Assembly (NCBI GenBank): GCA_013824015.1 | Contig: PNNC01000058.1 | Span: 5,341-69,340, forward strand | Length of the DNA stretch: 64,000 bases | From: Polaromonas sp. | GTDB lineage: Bacteria > Pseudomonadota > Gammaproteobacteria > Burkholderiales > Burkholderiaceae_C | Direction: 5' to 3' | Shown: positions 46,747-58,432 of the stretch, piece after piece | Position numbering within the stretch: position 1 is the stretch's first letter | How the letters are laid out: each line of letters begins with the position of its first letter | Program-made: the position numbers and the translations under genes | Notes under the pieces: model-generated | What the model saw: the letters and a program-made list of their open reading frames with translations, nothing else | Told to the model about the DNA's origin: nothing | The model's database searches: none

Positions 46747-49700
46747 ATGCTTTCCTTGCACCACCTGACACCCACCCGCCTGCTTGTTGCCACGGGGATG
46801 GCGGCCATCCTGAGTGCACAACTTGTGGCGGCCCAGCCTTCGCAAAAACCCCTGCTGAGCCGTGACGGGGGTGGCGTCAAGCCCAACATCATGCTGACGA
46901 TGGACGATTCGGGCTCGATGATGTTCCAGCACATGCCGGAGGACAACATCATTCTGGGCTCGCAGACGGTGGCCAGCCCGGTGGGCGGTGCCTCGGTGCG
47001 CATGGATCCGGGCGACAACGCGACGCTGGGCGGGCCGGGTTCCGCACAAGGCGTTGACAGCCAGTTCCTCGGGACGATCTCCGGCGATCCGGCGTCCACC
47101 AACTACCGGCAAAAGCTGATGCGTTCGCCGGATACCAATACCATTTACTACAACCCCGAGGTCAGGTACCAGCCCTGGCCGCTGGCGGCTGGCGGGCGCA
47201 TGGCCAACTCCCCGGTCGCTGCTGCCTTGCGAGACCCCATGAATGCCGGCGGCGGCACGATCAATCTGACGGACATCCGGTCGGTCACCAGCAACTCGCA
47301 TGTCTGGTGCTTCAGGCCGAGCGGCACGGCGGACAACTGCAGGGACAGCAACACCGACATTGACTACGATCCTGGCCTGTATTACCGCCTGAGAAAAAAT
47401 GCGTCGGGCCAGTACCTGGACGCGACGGTACAGGGCAACTACGACAGGTTCACGATCAATGCCACGTCGGGCACCACCTACACCAAATACGCGGCACGCA
47501 CCGATTGCACGGGCAGCTCCTGCACACGTGACCAGGAGCGCCAGAACTTTGCCAACTGGTTCACCTACTACCGCACACGGAACCTGCTGGCGCGTGGTGC
47601 CGTGGCCGAGGCGTTTTCAGAGTCGACCGATACCTTCCGCGTCGGCTACGGGCGCATCAACAAGGGCTCGACCAGCATTGACAACGTGAACACCCGGGTG
47701 ATCGAGGCCGGGGTTCGTGACTTCACGGCGACCCGCAAGTCAGCGCTTTTTGACTATCTCTATTCGCTGCCGGCCGAGGGTGGCACGCCCTTGCGTCTGG
47801 CGATGCAGGAGGTCGGCAACTATTATTCGCGGGCTGACAACAGGGGGCCGTGGTCCGAGGTGCCGGGATCGGTGAACACCGCGGCGGACAAGAGCTGCCG
47901 CCGGTCCTATCACCTGCTGGTGACGGACGGCTACTGGAGTGACACGGTGGGAAGCGGCGGGCTGGTTGCTGTCGGCAATGAAGACAATACCAACGGCGCC
48001 AACATCACCGGCCCCGGACAATCCTTCCAGTACCTGGCTCCTCGGCCTTACCGCGACGGCTCATCCGACACGCTGGCCGACTATGCGATGAAGTACTGGA
48101 AGAACGACCTGCGCAGCACGCTGGACAACAAGGTGGTCGCTTCCATCGAAAATCCCGCCTTCTGGCAGCACATGGTCAACTTCACCGTGGGGCTGGGTGT
48201 GCGGGGGCCGCTGGATCCATCGACCGACCTGCCGTTCCTGACGGCCGGCACCAAGTCCTGGGGCTCCGACAAGATTGATGATCTCTGGCATGCAGCGGTC
48301 AACAGCCGCGGCGAGTTTTTCAGCGCCAAGGATCCCAATGAGATGGCCAGCGCGATCCGGAATTCGATTGGGCAGACCCTGCAGCGCGAATTGCGGGAAG
48401 CTGGTGTGGCCACCGCTGCCACCACCCTGCAGGATGGCAACCGCAAGTATGTGCCGCTGTACAAAACCGGCGCATGGAGCGGGGATGTCCAGGCCTTCGC
48501 GCTGGACGCCAATGGCCAGGCGGGCGTCCAGCTGTGGACCGCCGAAGCCAAGGTGCCGGCGCCGGCCAGCCGGCGGATATTTACATGGGATACGGGTCTG
48601 GCCACACCGGCAGGTGTTGAATTCACGCTGGCCGGCATGAGCACGGCGAACGAAACCGCGCTGGGCAGCGCAGGTGCACCGAGCCAGGCGACGTTTGTCA
48701 ACTTCCTGCGTGGCGACCGGAGTCAGGAAGGCTCCGAACTGCTGTTCCGCCGGCGCGGCGGGGTGCTGGGGGATTTCATCAACTCCAACCCGGTGCTGGT
48801 CAAGGCATCGGTCAATCTGGGCTATGGCACGTTGCCCACCATCGGCAGCAGTTATGCCACCTTTCTGACCCAAAAAGCCGCCAGGACGTCCGTGCTGTTT
48901 GCCGGCAGCAACGGCGGCATGCTGCACGGCTTCAAGGACACGGGCGGGCTTGTTCCTGCTGATGATGGCAAGGAAGTGTTTGCCTACGTGCCGCGGACGG
49001 TCTACCCCAATCTGGCCAAGCTGGCGGATCAGACCTATGGCACGGACCTGCTGTACCACCAGTTTTTTGTGGATGGCCCGTTGCTGGAGACCGATGCTTT
49101 TGTGCGTGCGCCCGGTGCGGCCGCTGCCAGCTGGCGCAACTACCTGCTGGGCGCGCTGGGTGCCGGCGGGCGCGCCATTTTTGCCCTGGACGTGACAGAC
49201 ACCGCCAACCTGGGTGCCTCCAGCATCCGCTGGGAGGTGTCCAGCAGCACCGACAGTGATATCGGCCATATCTATTCCCCGGTGCAGGCCGGTGTGCTGC
49301 CCAACGGGGAATGGGTGGCCATTTTCGGCAATGGACAGTTCAGCACCGCGGGCAAGGCGGTGCTGTTTGTCGCCAACCTCGAGACGGGCGCCCTGCAGAA
49401 ACTGGTGGTGGAAGCTGCGGGGTCCAATGGCTTGAGCGGCGTCTCCCTTCAGCGCAACAGCCTGGGACAGATCACCAACTTGTTTGCCGGCGACCTCAAG
49501 GGCAACCTGTGGAAGTTCAACTACAACGCTTCGGCGGCCAGCCGGTTCGAGGTCGCAGGTGGCACCGCCCTGTTCACTGCCGCCAGCAGTGGTGGCGTGG
49601 CGCAGCCCATCAGCCAGCCCCCCACGCTGTTTGACCATCCCGATGGCGGCAAGATGCTGATTTTCGGCACCGGTTTGCTGTCGACGGAAACCGATGCCAA

Positions 49701-50343
49701 CTCGACGGCGGTTCAGGCCCTCTATGGCGTGTGGGACAAGCCCTCGGACGTGGCATTTGCGCGACCCATGAACCGCAACTCGCTGTCAACACGCACGGTG
49801 ACATCGACGGCCGGTGTCGGCGGGGCCGTCCTGTATGACGTGGCTGGAACTGACGTGGACTTCACGACGCAGCGCGGATGGGTCATCGACCTGAGCATCA
49901 TCACGGGCCTGCGGTCGATCGCCCGGCCATTGCCCATCGGCAAGACCCTGGCCCTCGTCAGCACGCTGGCGCCGGCGCAGAACATCGTTGCCTGCGACGC
50001 TTCCACCGGTGTGGGCATCACGTTTGTGCTGCCGGTGCTGACCGGCGAAAACCCGACGTATCGCCTGTTCGACACCAATGGGGACAACACGGTGAACTCA
50101 TCGGACTCCACCAGTTCGGGCTACTTCACCACCAGCCCTGGCGGTGAGAAGGTGTACCTGCCCGGCAATGATCGCGGCACCGGCAGTGGCGATGGTGGAT
50201 CCTTCTGTCCACCTGGCTTCAAGCTGGGGGCTGCCGTGGAAACCACATCCGGCAACCGTCTGTGCGAACCCGAGGATCCGATACCCCCCCAGGCGATCAA
50301 GGACAGGGTCTGGCGCCGTATCATCAACCCACCGATCCGTTAA
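46747..50343 (+). CDS. pilY1: PilY1/PilC pilus tip adhesin
   Basis: PNIMLTMDDSGSM (MIDAS-like), NFANWFTYYRTR, GTPL, NGGMLHGF, GDLKGNLWKF, DTNGD Ca-loop. Confidence 0.92.
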   Translation: MLSLHHLTPTRLLVATGMAAILSAQLVAAQPSQKPLLSRDGGGVKPNIMLTMDDSGSMMFQHMPEDNIILGSQTVASPVGGASVRMDPGDNATLGGPGSAQGVDSQFLGTISGDPASTNYRQKLMRSPDTNTIYYNPEVRYQPWPLAAGGRMANSPVAAALRDPMNAGGGTINLTDIRSVTSNSHVWCFRPSGTADNCRDSNTDIDYDPGLYYRLRKNASGQYLDATVQGNYDRFTINATSGTTYTKYAARTDCTGSSCTRDQERQNFANWFTYYRTRNLLARGAVAEAFSESTDTFRVGYGRINKGSTSIDNVNTRVIEAGVRDFTATRKSALFDYLYSLPAEGGTPLRLAMQEVGNYYSRADNRGPWSEVPGSVNTAADKSCRRSYHLLVTDGYWSDTVGSGGLVAVGNEDNTNGANITGPGQSFQYLAPRPYRDGSSDTLADYAMKYWKNDLRSTLDNKVVASIENPAFWQHMVNFTVGLGVRGPLDPSTDLPFLTAGTKSWGSDKIDDLWHAAVNSRGEFFSAKDPNEMASAIRNSIGQTLQRELREAGVATAATTLQDGNRKYVPLYKTGAWSGDVQAFALDANGQAGVQLWTAEAKVPAPASRRIFTWDTGLATPAGVEFTLAGMSTANETALGSAGAPSQATFVNFLRGDRSQEGSELLFRRRGGVLGDFINSNPVLVKASVNLGYGTLPTIGSSYATFLTQKAARTSVLFAGSNGGMLHGFKDTGGLVPADDGKEVFAYVPRTVYPNLAKLADQTYGTDLLYHQFFVDGPLLETDAFVRAPGAAAASWRNYLLGALGAGGRAIFALDVTDTANLGASSIRWEVSSSTDSDIGHIYSPVQAGVLPNGEWVAIFGNGQFSTAGKAVLFVANLETGALQKLVVEAAGSNGLSGVSLQRNSLGQITNLFAGDLKGNLWKFNYNASAASRFEVAGGTALFTAASSGGVAQPISQPPTLFDHPDGGKMLIFGTGLLSTETDANSTAVQALYGVWDKPSDVAFARPMNRNSLSTRTVTSTAGVGGAVLYDVAGTDVDFTTQRGWVIDLSIITGLRSIARPLPIGKTLALVSTLAPAQNIVACDASTGVGITFVLPVLTGENPTYRLFDTNGDNTVNSSDSTSSGYFTTSPGGEKVYLPGNDRGTGSGDGGSFCPPGFKLGAAVETTSGNRLCEPEDPIPPQAIKDRVWRRIINPPIR

Positions 50344-50355
50344 GAAAGCACGCCA

Positions 50356-50811
50356 ATGCAAGCCGTTCATGTCTCCTTCCAGGGCCGTCCTGCGCGGCGC
50401 GCTTCAGGGTTCACCTTGATCGAACTCATGATCGTGGTGGCCATCATCGGCATTCTTTCTGCGGTTGCGTATCCCGCCTACACGGACTACATCCGGCGGG
50501 GTAACCGGTCCGAGGCGACGGCGGCCCTGCTGGAGGCTCAGCAGTTCATGGAGCGCTACTATGGCGCCAACAACCGGTACAGCACGGCGGCCAACGGCAA
50601 CCCTGCGCTGCCAACGCGGCTGCAGACCATCCCGGCCGGTGGTCCCACCCGCTACACCTTGAGTGTTGCCGCGACGGTCAACTCCTACACCCTGACGGCG
50701 ACACCCTCCGGCAGCATGTCGACCGACAAATGCGGATCGCTGACCGTGACCAACACGGGTGTGAAGGGGCGAAGTGCAACAGGCCCGACCGTGGCGGATT
50801 GCTGGCGTTAG
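50356..50811 (+). CDS. pilE: Type IV minor pilin PilE
   Basis: [27 protein letters not shown]. Confidence 0.92.
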
Positions 50812-52849: not shown

Positions 52850-53725
52850 TCAGGACATCGACAGGCTGGCGACCTTCTCGCTGGCTTTGGGCCCGGGCAT
52901 GTCGGGGCTGTCGCCGCCCAGCGGCAGCGATGCCGGGATCGCCAGCGGCGGCCGCACCGGCGCATACGCCGGCGCCCGACCATTGGCGACGGCCTGCAGC
53001 CGGGCGTGTTCGGCCATCACCTTGGCGGCGTAACCGCCATCGCTCTCAAGGTTGGCCGCGCCAACGTAGAACTTGAGGCCGGCTTCCAGCGAGCCGGCGC
53101 GGGCAATACATTCCTGCAGCACCTTGACGCCGACACGCAGGTTGGTCACCGGGTCGAAGGCGGCCAGCTTGCCACCGAAGTTTTCATACTTGTCGTGGTG
53201 GATCTTGGTCATGACCTGCATCAGGCCCTGCGCGCCGACCGGGCTTTGGGCGAACGGGTTGAAGCCCGATTCGATCGCCATGATGGCCAGGATCAGCGTG
53301 GGGTCGAGCTTGGCTTTCTGGCCGATTTCGAAGGCTTCGGCGACCAGCACGCTGAGCGGCTCAGGCGCGACGCCGTACTTGCGGCTCAGCCAGAAGGCCA
53401 CGGCAGCCTGCTGTTTGGGCAGGTCCTTGGGATTGGCGGCGGTGGCGCGGTCGATGGCATCCGGCTCGGTGTAACCGATGGCGGCTTCCTGGCGCTCCTG
53501 CAGCCAGCTCATCAGCCGCGACTCGCCGGCCTGACGCAAGTCGGGCCGGGCGGTGAGGGTGATCACGGCAAACACCACGGCCAGACCGACCAGGGCGAAG
53601 CTGTTGTGCGTGATTTCAAAAAAGCCCTGGGCGATGTCGTCTGCAATATTGGCCAGACTGGCGCCCACGTTTTTCTGGATTGCCCGCAAGGTGGATGCGG
53701 GGCTGGATTGTCCTAGCGCTGTCAT
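52850..53725 (-). CDS. Lytic transglycosylase (SLT domain)
   Basis: AIMAIESGFNP, GAQGLMQV; aggag RBS before ATG 53725. Confidence 0.9.
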   Translation of the reverse strand: MTALGQSSPASTLRAIQKNVGASLANIADDIAQGFFEITHNSFALVGLAVVFAVITLTARPDLRQAGESRLMSWLQERQEAAIGYTEPDAIDRATAANPKDLPKQQAAVAFWLSRKYGVAPEPLSVLVAEAFEIGQKAKLDPTLILAIMAIESGFNPFAQSPVGAQGLMQVMTKIHHDKYENFGGKLAAFDPVTNLRVGVKVLQECIARAGSLEAGLKFYVGAANLESDGGYAAKVMAEHARLQAVANGRAPAYAPVRPPLAIPASLPLGGDSPDMPGPKASEKVASLSMS

Positions 53726-54261
53726 AGCACTCCTTTCTACGTGCGGCGGCTTCTGCAAGCCGTCACACCTTGATTGGGTCGCCATCAAACCAGGGCCTTG
53801 GCCCCGGGGGTGTGGACCCCTTGTCTGACTTTGCCGGGTTCGGCAGCGGGTTCGGGTTGTCCCTTGGTTTCCTCGGGACGGCGAATTCTATGAGGGGTCT
53901 AAATAACTTGTCAATAATATCAAAGTGAATCGATATATCAATTTTTGGCATAAATAGCATAATTCAAGGCCAAAGCCCCGGTTTCTGGCGCTTCCGGGCT
54001 GTTTTGACCAAGCTCCCTAAGACGGCTTCCGTTGGCCGTGCAGCGGCCAATCAACTGTATGTTTTGCCAGTAAAGTCCAGCTACTTCAAGGCTTTGCAGC
54101 GTTCTTGGAGAAAACGCTGGAGCATTCGATCAAGCGTCATCTCGGGATACAGCGGCGGGATTTCCCGTGTGTCTGTAGGACAAATTCCCGACCTGTCGCG
54201 CATATGTAAAGCCGGCAAGAAAACCGCAATCGCCGGACATTTTTTGATTACAAATATTGGC

Positions 54262-54290
54262 TTGCGTGCCGGGCGCACGGCGGATAACCT
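54262..54290 (+). promoter_or_regulatory. Putative sigma70 promoter
   Basis: TTGCGT-17 bp-TAACCT preceded by an AT-rich tract. Confidence 0.55.
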
Positions 54291-54295
54291 GCAGT

Positions 54296-54460
54296 TGCTT
54301 GAGTACCTCAAGCATCACCGGTAACCAACCCGGCAACCTCGGGAGCAATCACTTGCTCTCATCGCACTGGAGACGAAACTTCTCTCCTTTGCGAAACCAG
54401 ACGGCATGGGCGTTATGCCCGCCGTCAGCCCCGGTCGGCCCAGCTGCCCGGGGTTTTTCA
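54296..54460 (+). ncRNA. Candidate small RNA (~165 nt)
   Basis: Upstream promoter, several hairpins, GC hairpin + T run at the end, no credible ORF. Confidence 0.55.
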
Positions 54461-54463
54461 TTT
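54429..54463 (+). terminator. Intrinsic terminator
   Basis: ccccgg...ccgggg followed by tttttcattt. Confidence 0.65.
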
Positions 54464-54529
54464 CTGCAGGCAGGCATCCGCGCAGAAATTCATTGACCTT
54501 TGCGTGCAGGCCCCCAAAACTCGGTGCTT

Positions 54530-57500
54530 ATGACAAGCAACGAGATGCGTGGCCGCTGGGCCCATATCTGGCGCGGCCTCCCGGCCCGGGCCAATTCAGT
54601 GATGCGATCCCCGCGCTGGCAGCGCCGGTTGGCCTGGGCTGCGGGCAGCCTGCTGATGGTCTGGTTGCTGGCCTGGGCCGCAGTGCCCGGCCTGCTCAAG
54701 TGGCAACTGGAGACCGCCGGATCGCAGAAGCTGGGGCGCCAGCTCACGGTGGGCAAGGTGGATTTCCGGCCCTGGTCGCTGGAGCTCACGCTGCACGACC
54801 TGGTGCTTGCGAAAGCCGGCGCTTCCCCGGCTGCGTCGCCTGAACTGGCCCAGGGATCTCCCCAGCTGAGCATCAAGCGTCTCTATGTAGATGCGGAGCT
54901 GCAATCGCTGCTGCGGCTGGCACCGGTGGTGGACGCCCTCCAGGTGGAAGATCCGGTGCTGTCGCTGACCCATCTCGGCCAGGGGCGCTACGACATCGAC
55001 GACATCGTGGCGCGCCTGAGGCCCGCGTCCGACGAGCCGGCCGGCAAGCCACCGCGTTTTGCGCTCTACAACCTGGTGCTGACCGGTGGCCGCGCCGACT
55101 TCAATGACCTGTCGGTGCGCAAGCTTCACGAGTTGCGCGAGCTGAAGCTGTCCGTCCCCTTTTTGAGCAACCTGCGTTCCCAGCGCGACATCCAGACAGC
55201 GCCACACCTGACCTTCGCGCTCAATGGCAGCCGGTTCGACACCGCTGCCGAAGGCACACCCTTTGCGCAGACCCGCAAGACCGACGCCACCTTCAGGCTC
55301 AACGCGCTGGACCTGCGGCCTTATCTCGGCTACCTGCCGGCCAGCCTGCCGCTGCGACTGCAGGGCGGGGTGCTCGATGCCGATATCCAGGTGGCTTTTG
55401 AACAGGCGCCCGACACCGTGGTCAGGATCTCCGGTTCGGTCACGGCCAGCCAGGTGCGCCTGCTCGGCGCCGCCGGCGCGCCGGCATCCGCCCCCGAGTT
55501 GCTGGGTTTCGAGCGCCTGCAGCTGGTGATGGACGAGGTCCGGCCGCTGGAGCAGCTGGTCCGGCTGTCGTCGGTGGTGCTCACGGCCCCCGTGCTCAAC
55601 CTTACGCGTGATCGCAGCGGGCGGCTGAACCTGCTGCCGGCCGGCCCCGCGATTGCTACAAAAAACATAGCTTCTGATGACCGTTCCATAAGGGCTGGCG
55701 GTAAAAATGCTGCACCAAGCCAGACGCCCACGGCAGCTGCGCCCGGGGCAGGCCGCGCCGCGCCCTGGAAAGTCCAGGTCGCCAGCCTCGCCGTGCGTGG
55801 CGGCATGGTCAACTGGCTGGACCAAAGCCTGGCCTCACCCGCGCAGATCCGCCTGAACGGGCTGGTGCTGGACGCGTCGGCGATCAGCTATCCCTTTTCG
55901 GCCGCCGCGCCGCTGCAGTTCAAGGGCGCCATCGCGCTGGACGCGGCGGCGGTGGCTGCCGCCGCGCCGCCCGCCGCCGCCCGCAGAAAAGCGGTCCAGG
56001 CCGGCATCGCCGCGCCGGCGCCGGCGGCCACACCCGCGCTGCTGAGCTTCAGCGGCAGCGCGACCGATGCGGCTGCCGATGTCAGGGCGACGCTGGCGGC
56101 CTGGCCGCTGGACATGGCCGCCAAGTACATCGGCCAGTTTCTGCTGCCGGCGCTCAATGGCCAGCTCGATGCGGAGCTCGGCATCCAGTGGCAGGCGGCG
56201 GCCGGCGACAAGGCGCAGCTGCTGACGGTCAGCTCGCCCCAGCTCGCGGTGCGCGACATCCTGCTGGCCGAAGGCAAAACATCGCTGGTGTCGGTGCAGC
56301 GGGTCGATGTCAGCGGCATGGACATCGACGTGGCCGGCCAGACCTTCAAGGCCGCCAGCATGCGCCTGACCCGGCCCCAGGTCCGGGTTGATCGTGATGC
56401 CAACAGCCGCTGGATGTACCAGCGCTGGATGGCGGCGCGTGGCCAGACCGCGCCGTCGCCCGCGTCGACAGCCGCGCCGGCCTGGGGTGTGGCCATCGCC
56501 GAGCTGTTGCTGGATGGCGGCGCCATGTCGTTTTCGGATCGCTCTGGCGCCAAGCCGGTGGCTTTTGAGGTCAGCAGTGTCAAGGCCCAGCTGCAGGGGC
56601 TGGTGCTCGATGAGCGGCCAGCGGCCCGGGCGCAGGCGGCGAAACCGATGCCGCTGAACGCATCGCTGCAACTGGCGAGCGGGCGTTTCGAGCCGGGCAA
56701 GCTGGATTTCAAGGGCAGCCTGGGGTTGGCGCCGCTGCAGGCCCAGGGCCAGCTGGTGCTGCAGCGTCTGCCGGTGCAGGCCTTCGAGCCCTATTTCGGT
56801 GAGCAGCTCAACATCGACCTGCTGCGGGCCGACGCCAGCTTCCGCGGCCGCGTCGCCTGGCGCCAGACGCCGGCCGGCCCGCAGGCGCAACTGGCCGGCG
56901 ACGTGGCGCTGGAGGAGTTCCGCTCCAACACGCTGGCGCCCAGCGAGGGCTTGCTGGCGTGGAAGGCGCTGAAACTGCGCGGCCTGCAGGTGGCGCTGGA
57001 GCCGGCGAAAGCCACCCGGGTGGACGTGCGCGAAACCGTGCTGAGCGACTTCTTTGCGCGTGTGATCGTCACGCCCGAAGGCCGCATCAACCTGCAGGAC
57101 CTGCTCAAGCCGCCGGCTTCCGGCGCCATCGATGCTACAAAATCAGGAGCGGCTGATGCAATGCAGACAGGGGCTGGAGGCCAAAATCGTGCAAAAACTG
57201 CAGCGCTGGCGACAGGCGCCCGATCAGCGCCGGCGCCGCTCATCAACGTCGGTCCGATGACACTCATCAACGGCCGGGTGCTGTTTTCCGACCGTTTTGT
57301 CAAACCCAACTACTCGGCCAACCTCAGCGAGCTCAGCGGCAAGCTCAGCGCCTTTTCATCGGCGCCCGCCGCCGGCGCGCCGGCGATGGCTGACCTGGAG
57401 CTGCGCGGCCGCGCCGAAGGCACGGCCTCGCTGGAGATCACCGGCAAACTCAACCCGCTGGCGCAACCGCTGGCGCTGGACATCCAGGGCAAGGTGCGTG

Positions 57501-58432
57501 ACCTGGAACTGCCGCCGTTGTCGCCTTATGCCATCAAGTACTCGGGTTACGGCATCAACCGCGGCAAACTCAGTGTCGACGTCAACTATGTGGTGCAGCC
57601 CGATGGCCAGCTCACCGCGAACAACAAGGTGGTGCTGAACCAGCTCAGCTTCGGCGACAAGGTCGAGGGCTCGACCGCCAGCCTGCCGGTCAAGCTGGCT
57701 GTGGCGCTGCTGGCCGACCGCAACGGTGTGATCGACATCGACCTGCCGATCAGTGGCTCGCTCAACGACCCGCAGTTCAGCCTCGGCCCGGTGATCGTCA
57801 AGGTGATCCTCAACGTCATCGTCAAGGCCATCACCGCGCCGTTCAGCCTGCTGGCCGGTGCCTTTGGTGGCGGCGGGGACGAGCTGGCCAGTGTCGGTTT
57901 TGCGCCGGGCAGCGCGCGGCTGGCGCCGGAGGCCACCGCCAGTCTCGACAAGGTGGCGAAGGCGCTGACCGATCGTCCTGCCTTGCAACTCACCGTCGTC
58001 GGTACCGCCAGTCTGGACGCCGAGCGCGAAGGCTACCGACGGGAACGGCTGGACCAGCTGCTGCGCGCCGAAAAACGCCGCGGCCTGGTGACCCAGGGCA
58101 GCACGGCCCTGAGCGGTGTCACCGTCAGCGCGGCCGAATACCCGGCGCTGCTCAAGGAGGTCTACCAGCGCGCCGACATCACCAAGCCGCGCAATCTGGT
58201 CGGCATGGCCAAAAACCTGCCGGCCGCCGAGATGGAAAAGTTGCTGCTGGCCGATATCGCGGTGACCGAGGACGCGATGCGCGAGCTGGCCCTCAGGCGC
58301 AGCGTGGCGGTCAGGGACTACCTGGCGGGCCGCGATCTGGCGCCGGCCAGGCTGTTCCTCGGCGCTGCCAAAACCGTGCCGCCGGACACCCAATGGACAC
58401 CCCGCGCGGAGCTGAATTTGGCGATGCCGTAA
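54530..58432 (+). CDS. DUF748 (AsmA-like) domain protein with C-terminal OmpA-like region; two repeat-derived inserts
   Basis: N-terminal TM, repeated beta-rich modules, LSPYAIKYSGY, IDLPISGSLNDPQFS, PFSLL. Confidence 0.82.
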   Translation: MTSNEMRGRWAHIWRGLPARANSVMRSPRWQRRLAWAAGSLLMVWLLAWAAVPGLLKWQLETAGSQKLGRQLTVGKVDFRPWSLELTLHDLVLAKAGASPAASPELAQGSPQLSIKRLYVDAELQSLLRLAPVVDALQVEDPVLSLTHLGQGRYDIDDIVARLRPASDEPAGKPPRFALYNLVLTGGRADFNDLSVRKLHELRELKLSVPFLSNLRSQRDIQTAPHLTFALNGSRFDTAAEGTPFAQTRKTDATFRLNALDLRPYLGYLPASLPLRLQGGVLDADIQVAFEQAPDTVVRISGSVTASQVRLLGAAGAPASAPELLGFERLQLVMDEVRPLEQLVRLSSVVLTAPVLNLTRDRSGRLNLLPAGPAIATKNIASDDRSIRAGGKNAAPSQTPTAAAPGAGRAAPWKVQVASLAVRGGMVNWLDQSLASPAQIRLNGLVLDASAISYPFSAAAPLQFKGAIALDAAAVAAAAPPAAARRKAVQAGIAAPAPAATPALLSFSGSATDAAADVRATLAAWPLDMAAKYIGQFLLPALNGQLDAELGIQWQAAAGDKAQLLTVSSPQLAVRDILLAEGKTSLVSVQRVDVSGMDIDVAGQTFKAASMRLTRPQVRVDRDANSRWMYQRWMAARGQTAPSPASTAAPAWGVAIAELLLDGGAMSFSDRSGAKPVAFEVSSVKAQLQGLVLDERPAARAQAAKPMPLNASLQLASGRFEPGKLDFKGSLGLAPLQAQGQLVLQRLPVQAFEPYFGEQLNIDLLRADASFRGRVAWRQTPAGPQAQLAGDVALEEFRSNTLAPSEGLLAWKALKLRGLQVALEPAKATRVDVRETVLSDFFARVIVTPEGRINLQDLLKPPASGAIDATKSGAADAMQTGAGGQNRAKTAALATGARSAPAPLINVGPMTLINGRVLFSDRFVKPNYSANLSELSGKLSAFSSAPAAGAPAMADLELRGRAEGTASLEITGKLNPLAQPLALDIQGKVRDLELPPLSPYAIKYSGYGINRGKLSVDVNYVVQPDGQLTANNKVVLNQLSFGDKVEGSTASLPVKLAVALLADRNGVIDIDLPISGSLNDPQFSLGPVIVKVILNVIVKAITAPFSLLAGAFGGGGDELASVGFAPGSARLAPEATASLDKVAKALTDRPALQLTVVGTASLDAEREGYRRERLDQLLRAEKRRGLVTQGSTALSGVTVSAAEYPALLKEVYQRADITKPRNLVGMAKNLPAAEMEKLLLADIAVTEDAMRELALRRSVAVRDYLAGRDLAPARLFLGAAKTVPPDTQWTPRAELNLAMP
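55654..55712 (+). repeat. Family-1 repeat (diverged) inside the DUF748 gene
   Basis: tgctacaaaaaacatagc..agggctggcggtaaaaatg; AT-rich island in a GC-rich ORF. Confidence 0.7.
57133..57197 (+). repeat. Family-1 repeat (diverged) inside the DUF748 gene, second copy
   Basis: tgctacaaaatcaggagc..ggggctggaggccaaaatcg. Confidence 0.72.

Follow-up and report, generated by a model that had tools for sequence, protein, structure and literature searches.

Genomic context of the element

The window, a 64,000-nt stretch of Polaromonas DNA, carries an RNA element between a divergently oriented SLT-domain transglycosylase gene (SLT) and a DUF748 gene (Table 1). A sequence-only reading had proposed an independent small RNA here. 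Its promoter, TTGCGT-N17-TAACCT, lies in the claimed place with a 17-bp spacer, and the hairpins that it listed (P1, P3, P4, and P5) are all present, with GGAGA (54369–54373) and TCTCC (54383–54387) confirmed as the arms of P4. The claimed terminator likewise stands before the DUF748 start codon, with CCCCGG at 54429–54434, CCGGGG at 54448–54453, and TTTTT at 54454–54458. Two features were absent from that listing, namely hairpin P2 and the inverted repeat upstream of the promoter.

Table 1. Coordinates of the RNA element, its predicted parts, and the flanking genes in the window
Feature	Position	Strand	Basis
SLT-domain transglycosylase gene, divergent neighbour	52850–53725	−	PF01464
Inverted-repeat operator CAATCG-N12-TGATTA, predicted activator site, centre −58.5	54227–54250	.	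PWM
A/T-rich tract between operator and −35, putatively UP-element-like	54251–54261	+	base frequencies
−35 hexamer TTGCGT	54262–54267	+	T 0.98, T 0.73, G 0.95 (74 loci)
−10 hexamer TAACCT, 17 bp past −35	54285–54290	+	T 0.95, A 0.98, T 0.98 (74 loci)
Predicted non-coding RNA, ∼162 nt	54297–54458	+	fold z −7.0; conserved G at predicted +1 (G54297)
P1, 5′ hairpin	54296–54314	+	two-sided changes in 6/7 pairs, 22 genus sequences
P2, short form of lineage-variable domain, loop UAACCAAC	54318–54333	+	homologue comparison
P3, 8-bp hairpin, near-invariant tip GCAAU-NNN-UUGC	54341–54360	+	columns 97–100%; lower stem covaries
P4, two-segment hairpin, conserved GAC...CUC tip	54362–54394	+	8/8 pairs change two-sidedly
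P5, hairpin GAYGGC/GCCRUC, conserved bulged A	54400–54426	+	family alignment columns
Predicted intrinsic terminator CCCCGG/CCGGGG + U5	54427–54458	+	8/11 pairs change two-sidedly
Promoter-like site TTGACC-17-AAAACT, assigned to DUF748, outside the RNA	54493–54521	+	sequence pattern
DUF748 gene, usual but dispensable 3′ neighbour	54530–58432	+	PF05359; ATG at 54530

Several further features lie nearby. The SLT 5′ leader (53725–53914, − strand) is itself conserved: a TTGACA-18-TAGAAT promoter is followed by an AGGG-N4-CCC palindrome, CGCTGCCGA, GATGGCG.ACCAATCCA, and a Shine-Dalgarno (SD) sequence. This leader was found in 97 of 137 loci, in some as just its 5′ part, and has no Rfam match; in Burkholderia thailandensis, a 5′-UTR sRNA named BTH_s13 is reported to precede an SLT gene (PMC4035088). 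Directly upstream of the SLT −35 stands an AT-rich inverted repeat, ATATC...GATAT (53915–53945), a possible SLT operator, and genomes of the genus that no longer have the RNA contain similar sequences. A ZMP/ZTP riboswitch (RF01750; 52674–52803, − strand; 52.9 bits), present in 11 of 20 homologue loci as well, precedes glyA and then nrdR. At 46747–50811 (+ strand) lies a large PilY1-like adhesin ORF and, after it, a type IV pilin-like ORF, both labelled from sequence features. DUF748 appears to be nearly leaderless, its predicted −10 ending 9 bases upstream of the ATG. At one homologous locus (L009), a P1-like stretch of the window type lies ∼55–75 bases past the terminator, after the downstream promoter and beside a decayed DUF748.

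Fold and conserved architecture

The segment 54297–54461 is predicted to fold into six consecutive hairpins (MFE −79 kcal/mol, z −7.0) with identical MFE and centroid structures, and none of 200 shuffles was equally stable. The opposite strand gives a weaker fold (z −4.0) whose centroid is poorly defined. Homologues span about 150–235 nt across the family and follow one plan: P1 at the 5′ end, a variable P2 domain that is 40–60 nt longer in other genera, and a conserved core of P3, P4, P5, and terminator, in which P3 is the signature hairpin.

Columns conserved above 90% cluster in brief stretches at the tips and bulges of the stems: P3 contributes GG and GCAAU/UUGC, the tip of P4 contributes AC and CU, P5 contributes GGCA/GCC, and the stem of the terminator is conserved as well. 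Unpaired runs at this level do not exceed one base in the family alignment. In two divergent copies, the pair beneath the P3 tip is C-G instead of A-U; the P3 loop itself contains one invariant base and takes 15 different tetraloops among 172 sequences. The accessible segments of the RNA fall in the variable P2 region. P5 abuts the terminator, whose tail is most commonly UUUCUU in the family; five consecutive U, as in the window, occur in 18 of 100 homologue tails. Single-base indels occur in the RNA alignments, and no conserved reading frame was found, the P3 TTG frame being the one counted.

Rfam 15 gave no match near any gathering score in the window, and none to the models of 6S, SRP, tmRNA, or RNase P, four classes that the sequence-only reading had already discounted, or to those of tRNA. 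A scan of 20 divergent homologue loci (E ≤ 1) returned nothing but the adjacent ZMP/ZTP riboswitch.

Distribution and loss in Comamonadaceae

BLASTN placed the RNA in 22 of 36 same-genus genomes and in none of 24 genomes from other families. A covariance model built from the 22 genus sequences (R1) gave matches in 53 of the family's 150 sampled genera, of which two were spurious, and three weak R1 matches (L079–L081) were removed as non-homologous. A core model built from 68 sequences (R2) matched 62 of the 150 genera at E ≤ 0.01 and 60 at E < 1e-5, most of which were in the training set and one of which (G109) is doubtful. Within the genus, R2 detected the RNA in 55 of 80 genomes and in 33 of the 41 high-quality ones. 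The genome of the window has one copy; second matches elsewhere are weak, save in one MAG with two strong ones. Other families of the order yielded weak matches only (21–31 bits, in 15 of 147 genomes), and the two such alignments inspected were driven by the terminator, with the P3 tip absent. Searches of plasmids and of viral contigs for the RNA gave no match.

A pattern scan of GTDB returned at least 120 stretches from 13 of 64 parts, from which we estimate ∼640 in all. Record titles were mainly Polaromonas, Rhodoferax, Variovorax, Hydrogenophaga, and Acidovorax/Paracidovorax, together with Ramlibacter, Comamonas, Giesbergeria, Xenophilus, and Caenimonas; several MAG titles were generic or discordant. 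Named records with the RNA are mainly Comamonadaceae, with Polaromonas glacialis, Variovorax paradoxus, Rhodoferax ferrireducens, and Hydrogenophaga spp. among the cultured members, and the window's own P1 and P2 match records titled Polaromonas. Six records with Comamonadaceae-type RNA (L180, L187, L231, L234, L273, and L280) are titled Undibacterium, Synechococcus, Gammaproteobacteria, Egaibacter, or Phenylobacterium, and are probably mislabelled or mis-binned MAG contigs.

Among five near-complete genus genomes without a match, the RNA is gone from the locus in four and persists as a decayed remnant in one. In many distant genera of the family, a gene that we take to be UbiD-like lies opposite SLT, and the RNA was not found there. 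Judged from these genome comparisons, the RNA is dispensable and has been lost in some lineages. One unpublished genome, G031 (locus L018), contributes one of the 22 rows of alignment A2 and one of the 68 rows of A5, enters the promoter profile, and adds one count to the BLASTN, neighbour, operator, and within-genus tallies; it is absent from the family alignment (A6), and no conclusion hinges on it.

Covariation and strand

The conservation check suggested in the sequence-only reading spoke in favour of its proposal: homologues across Comamonadaceae show two-sided pair changes. In the family alignment (99 distinct sequences), such changes occur in 29 of 36 pairs, a count that none of 500 shuffles reached, and 94% of cells pair, compared with 31–48% when partners are slid; this alignment was fitted to R2 and is hence biased towards the model. 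A genus alignment made with MAFFT has two-sided changes in 25 of 50 pairs, again matched by none of 500 shuffles, and parsimony on a tree counts 8–18 switches of pair type in each of 11 pairs. P3 contains 46 G-U against 2 A-C appositions among the family sequences, an excess that favours an RNA on the + strand over a DNA palindrome; in outer P4 and inner P5 the ratio is roughly even. These comparisons point to a structured RNA read from the + strand.

Predicted promoter and upstream operator

Because a consensus scanner called neither the promoter of the RNA, which agrees with the consensus at just 6 of 12 letters, nor its terminator, both assignments rest on conservation. An iterated profile over 78 loci reads YTTG, a spacer of mostly 17, TANNNT, and then G (0.95) seven bases later. 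In the A/T-rich block, the first three columns have A at 0.85, 0.73, and 0.55.

The operator has the family consensus CAATSR-N12-YSATTG and scores above 10 with the PWM in 130 of 172 loci, compared with 2 of 172 shuffled controls, its profile having been trained on part of the scored loci. The 172 are the loci with a promoter call among 199, and named records and handles partly overlap in this set. The operator is centred at −58.5/−57.5 in 122 of the 130 scoring loci and at −78.5 or −79.5 in two Hydrogenophaga copies. Nine Variovorax loci (L196, L204, L220, L222, L244, L253, L276, L279, and L283) are without the CAAT operator and have GGG-W4-CCC-type palindromes at about −54 instead. Class I activators occupy a fixed site upstream of the −35 that shifts by whole helical turns. 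From the fixed place upstream of the −35, the two-turn shift, and the palindrome swap in Variovorax, we infer that the inverted repeat at −58 is an activator site.

A PWM scan of the window's genome gave no excess at spacer 12 (42 matches, compared with 11–58 at other spacers), and the top intergenic matches adjoin unrelated genes. Among five complete relatives, the RNA locus was the only place with exact operator matches in common (exact there in three of the five). The absence of a second shared site in these scans suggests that the activator has few other targets. Sites resembling GGG-W4-CCC occur at 28 intergenic places of G000, several of them preceding genes that we take to be transporter-like and, presumably, ftsH; these sites suggest a global regulator.

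Several known regulators were considered for the operator. FlhC was not found in G000 or in the single-contig genome G177, both of which bear the operator, and FlhDC is thereby excluded. For NtrX, BphQ/AccR, and aromatic-metabolism regulators, the portions of the literature available to us contained no matching motif, and NtrX, NrdR, NikR, ModE, and Fur are not known to bind a matching motif.

Alternative readings of the element

SLT flanks the RNA divergently in 69 of 73 loci. DUF748 lies 3′ of the RNA in 48 of the 73 and a DUF349 gene in 19, both being present in two. One alternative reading is a leader that acts in cis, as an attenuator or riboswitch, on DUF748 or another 3′ gene. The sequence-only reading had allowed for such an attenuator, and the frequency of DUF748 is in its favour, as are the similarity of the P2 arms to the terminator arms in this genus and the five genus genomes without the RNA that likewise have no intact DUF748 at the locus, the sole result for a link between the two. 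Against this, DUF748 is not 3′ of the RNA in 25 of 73 loci and stands without the RNA in eight, two RNA copies have relocated to unrelated loci, and the next gene is convergent in two. DUF748 also has a separate promoter-like site; the same pattern precedes it in 15 of 25 loci inspected, a count with no chance control. Mutual information within the core from P3 to the terminator (P1 and P2 are outside that alignment) revealed no pairing outside the stems. We consider a cis leader very unlikely; a conserved promoter and terminator, covarying pairs, and a location that does not depend on the downstream gene instead uphold, on comparative evidence, the independent small RNA first proposed. Lower still, and least probable of the readings weighed here, is that the element consists of DNA-level palindromes (operators or cruciforms) or of a small coding gene starting at the P3 UUG behind GGAGG. 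P3 does read GCAA-N4-TTGC at the DNA level, but this motif is no commoner in the genome than other spacings, the distance from +1 to P3 differs by tens of bases among homologues, and the G-U excess in P3 argues for RNA. Similarly, GGAGG lies 7 nt upstream of the invariant TTG, but the TTG frame crosses the terminator in 109 of 172 sequences and stops after 3–37 codons in the remainder. On these comparisons, both an attenuator and a peptide gene are unlikely.

A base-pairing sRNA deserves more weight, although we still hold it to be less likely than not: Hfq or an RNase cut would open P4 (or P3), and CUCC/CUUCC would then cover SD sequences. The CU-rich tract in which the sequence-only reading saw complementarity to SD sequences, cttctctccttt, is present at 54379–54390 (+ strand), and its UCUCCUU complements AAGGAGA, the most enriched SD-type 7-mer at the genome's start regions (47 compared with 7.6 expected). 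The C, U, and C of the P4 tip are conserved at 98, 97, and 85%, an Hfq gene occurs in 150 of 150 family genomes, and conservation lies mostly in the 3′ half of the RNA, where that of processed sRNAs is concentrated. The tract is, however, predicted to be paired with GGAGA inside P4, with an opening cost of about 12 kcal/mol and an unpaired probability of 0.04–0.11 for UCC. It also changes together with its partner, A-U replacing G-C in 21 and 12 of 99 sequences, and only 114 of 172 homologues retain CUCC. No conserved single-stranded seed of 6–8 nt was found in the family alignment and fold. The target prediction that the sequence-only reading had called for, corrected for accessibility and run on 2997 of 3025 crudely called start regions of the window's genome, went against a CU seed: 0.63% of the 2997 real and 0.92% of 1732 shuffled start regions reach −8 kcal/mol, and the best predicted sites use the non-conserved P2. 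Nor did 59 loci show any conserved pairing of the RNA with the SLT leader (mean z −0.03). Overall, the anti-SD seed is weakly supported. Pairing could also take place through a hairpin tip with another RNA (an sRNA or a processed fragment), for which the element would be a sponge or partner. The P3 tip varies hardly at all on either strand and the scan found no mRNA start-region target, as such a role would allow, but the single invariant base and the many tetraloops of the P3 loop speak against it, and we judge it improbable.

A candidate activator-induced, protein-binding sRNA

We tentatively favour an activator-induced, protein-binding sRNA over the base-pairing alternative. An activator would bind the inverted repeat at −58 and switch on the predicted sigma-70 promoter, and a stand-alone RNA of ∼162 nt would be transcribed from this promoter of its own and end at the predicted terminator. 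The RNA would likely act in trans by offering its conserved tips, chiefly that of P3, to a protein partner that binds RNA and would thereby be titrated or scaffolded. The logic would be that of a response regulator inducing an sRNA that sequesters a protein, as in UvrY–CsrB and CbrB–CrcZ, with other players. Here we infer transcription, the activating role of the operator, and the protein partner.

A conserved shape with few fixed letters at stem tips is the pattern of protein-recognition elements, and protein binding is preferred because selection on this RNA keeps shape plus a few stem-tip letters. The near-invariance of both P3 tip strands, the variability of the accessible segments, and the lack of a target excess also favour a protein over pairing. 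Against titration, the hairpin tips differ among themselves, unlike the repeated motif of classical sponges. A search for P3- or P5-like hairpins in the mRNA leaders of the window's genome gave none that was convincing (24 P3 pattern matches, no clear copy).

Two candidate partners were examined. CsrA is excluded, being present in 1 of 60 RNA-bearing genomes and 4 of 150 family genomes, and was not found in the window's genome (88.8% complete). ProQ was rejected as an obligatory partner: its domain was found in 47 of the 60 RNA-bearing genomes and not found in 13.

The transcript data are assembled contigs, which cannot show RNA ends. Two sequencing runs give even coverage across the entire region, as DNA from a relative would, and two others give no cover of the window's RNA; the four runs shared 4% of words. 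At the Acidovorax locus L238, four X4 contigs lie on P5 and the terminator at a depth of 15–77, compared with 2–10 in the flanks, but this run may be DNA and does not count as evidence of transcription.

The RNA could instead be a decoy for its own activator, since CAAUC in the P3 tip repeats CAATC, the half-site of the operator. The activator would then induce its own captor, an RNA that mimics a DNA operator, in negative feedback across the whole family. We regard this as quite improbable: P3 persists at loci without the operator, as in many Variovorax, two copies read CCAUC, the P3 and operator motifs do not vary together, and a shared 4–5-mer can arise by chance.

If the activator-induced, protein-binding reading holds, a mostly single-copy RNA of conserved structure with a dedicated operator in ∼60 genera would represent an undescribed circuit of activator, RNA, and partner, in a group mostly without CsrA. 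Freshwater, soil, roots, and wastewater commonly harbour Comamonadaceae, many of which degrade pollutants; our literature search found no characterised sRNA family for them. The 24-bp operator, the three conserved tips, and the natural loss and operator-swap lineages offer experimental handles. A protein partner other than CsrA, Hfq, or ProQ would make this a new RNA–protein regulatory pair.

Comparison with known systems

The predicted features of the RNA, namely its own promoter and intrinsic terminator, intergenic position, and independence from neighbours, agree with the general class of trans-encoded sRNAs. Riboswitches and attenuators form a poorer fit, as the genes downstream of the RNA are not uniformly co-oriented or of one function.

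CsrB-type RNAs carry repeated GGA loops, and CrcZ/CrcY carry several single-stranded AAnAAnAA motifs and a sigma-54 promoter. The RNA described here resembles CsrB/RsmY/RsmZ and CrcZ, as far as the sources available to us describe them, in being a stand-alone multi-hairpin RNA with a terminator and an activator site that seemingly serves little else. It differs from CsrB/RsmY/RsmZ in that GGA lies in the P3, P4, and P5 stems and not in loops, the tips are non-identical, CsrA is mostly missing from the family, and Rfam gives no match; it differs from CrcZ/CrcY in showing no A-rich Crc/Hfq repeats on inspection and in its sigma-70-like promoter. The activators of the known RNAs are CbrB for the crc RNAs (PMC6456745) and UvrY for csrB/C (PMC4682653).

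The best sRNA-type Rfam scores belong to anti-hemB (RF02837; 14.6 bits against a gathering score of 49.5) and sX11 (RF02230; 20 against 70), which have a similar CCCGG/CCGGG terminator; only this terminator end aligns. Structured sRNAs bound by ProQ/FinO proteins are highly paired, end in a short run of U, and have A's ahead of the terminator. The RNA shares these traits, and a ProQ-domain gene is present in the window's genome, but no ProQ domain was found in 13 of the 60 RNA-bearing genomes.

The closest parallel for the CU tract is offered by the double-hairpin toxic sRNAs of Burkholderia (RF02278: ncS03, ncS05, ncS27, and ncS62), which are 57–92 nt long with two hairpins, occur in 3–5 copies, and have an unpaired CU tract proposed to cover ribosome-binding sites (PMC5688073). 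Like the RNA described here, they are intergenic sRNAs of betaproteobacteria, contain a CU-rich stretch that could pair with ribosome-binding sites, and have an upstream motif in common (PMC5688073). The RNA described here differs in its length of ∼150–235 nt, its six helices, its mostly single copy, its paired CU tract, and the lack of an Rfam match.

A set of 118 ncRNA candidates from Acidovorax avenae is given by coordinate only (PMC4099980, Table S4). The RNA was not described in the literature searched, and subscription papers and supplements may hold an earlier mention. Taken on its sequence features, it would be a new RNA family of a known kind, set apart from CsrB/RsmZ, CrcZ, and RF02278 by the features that define them.
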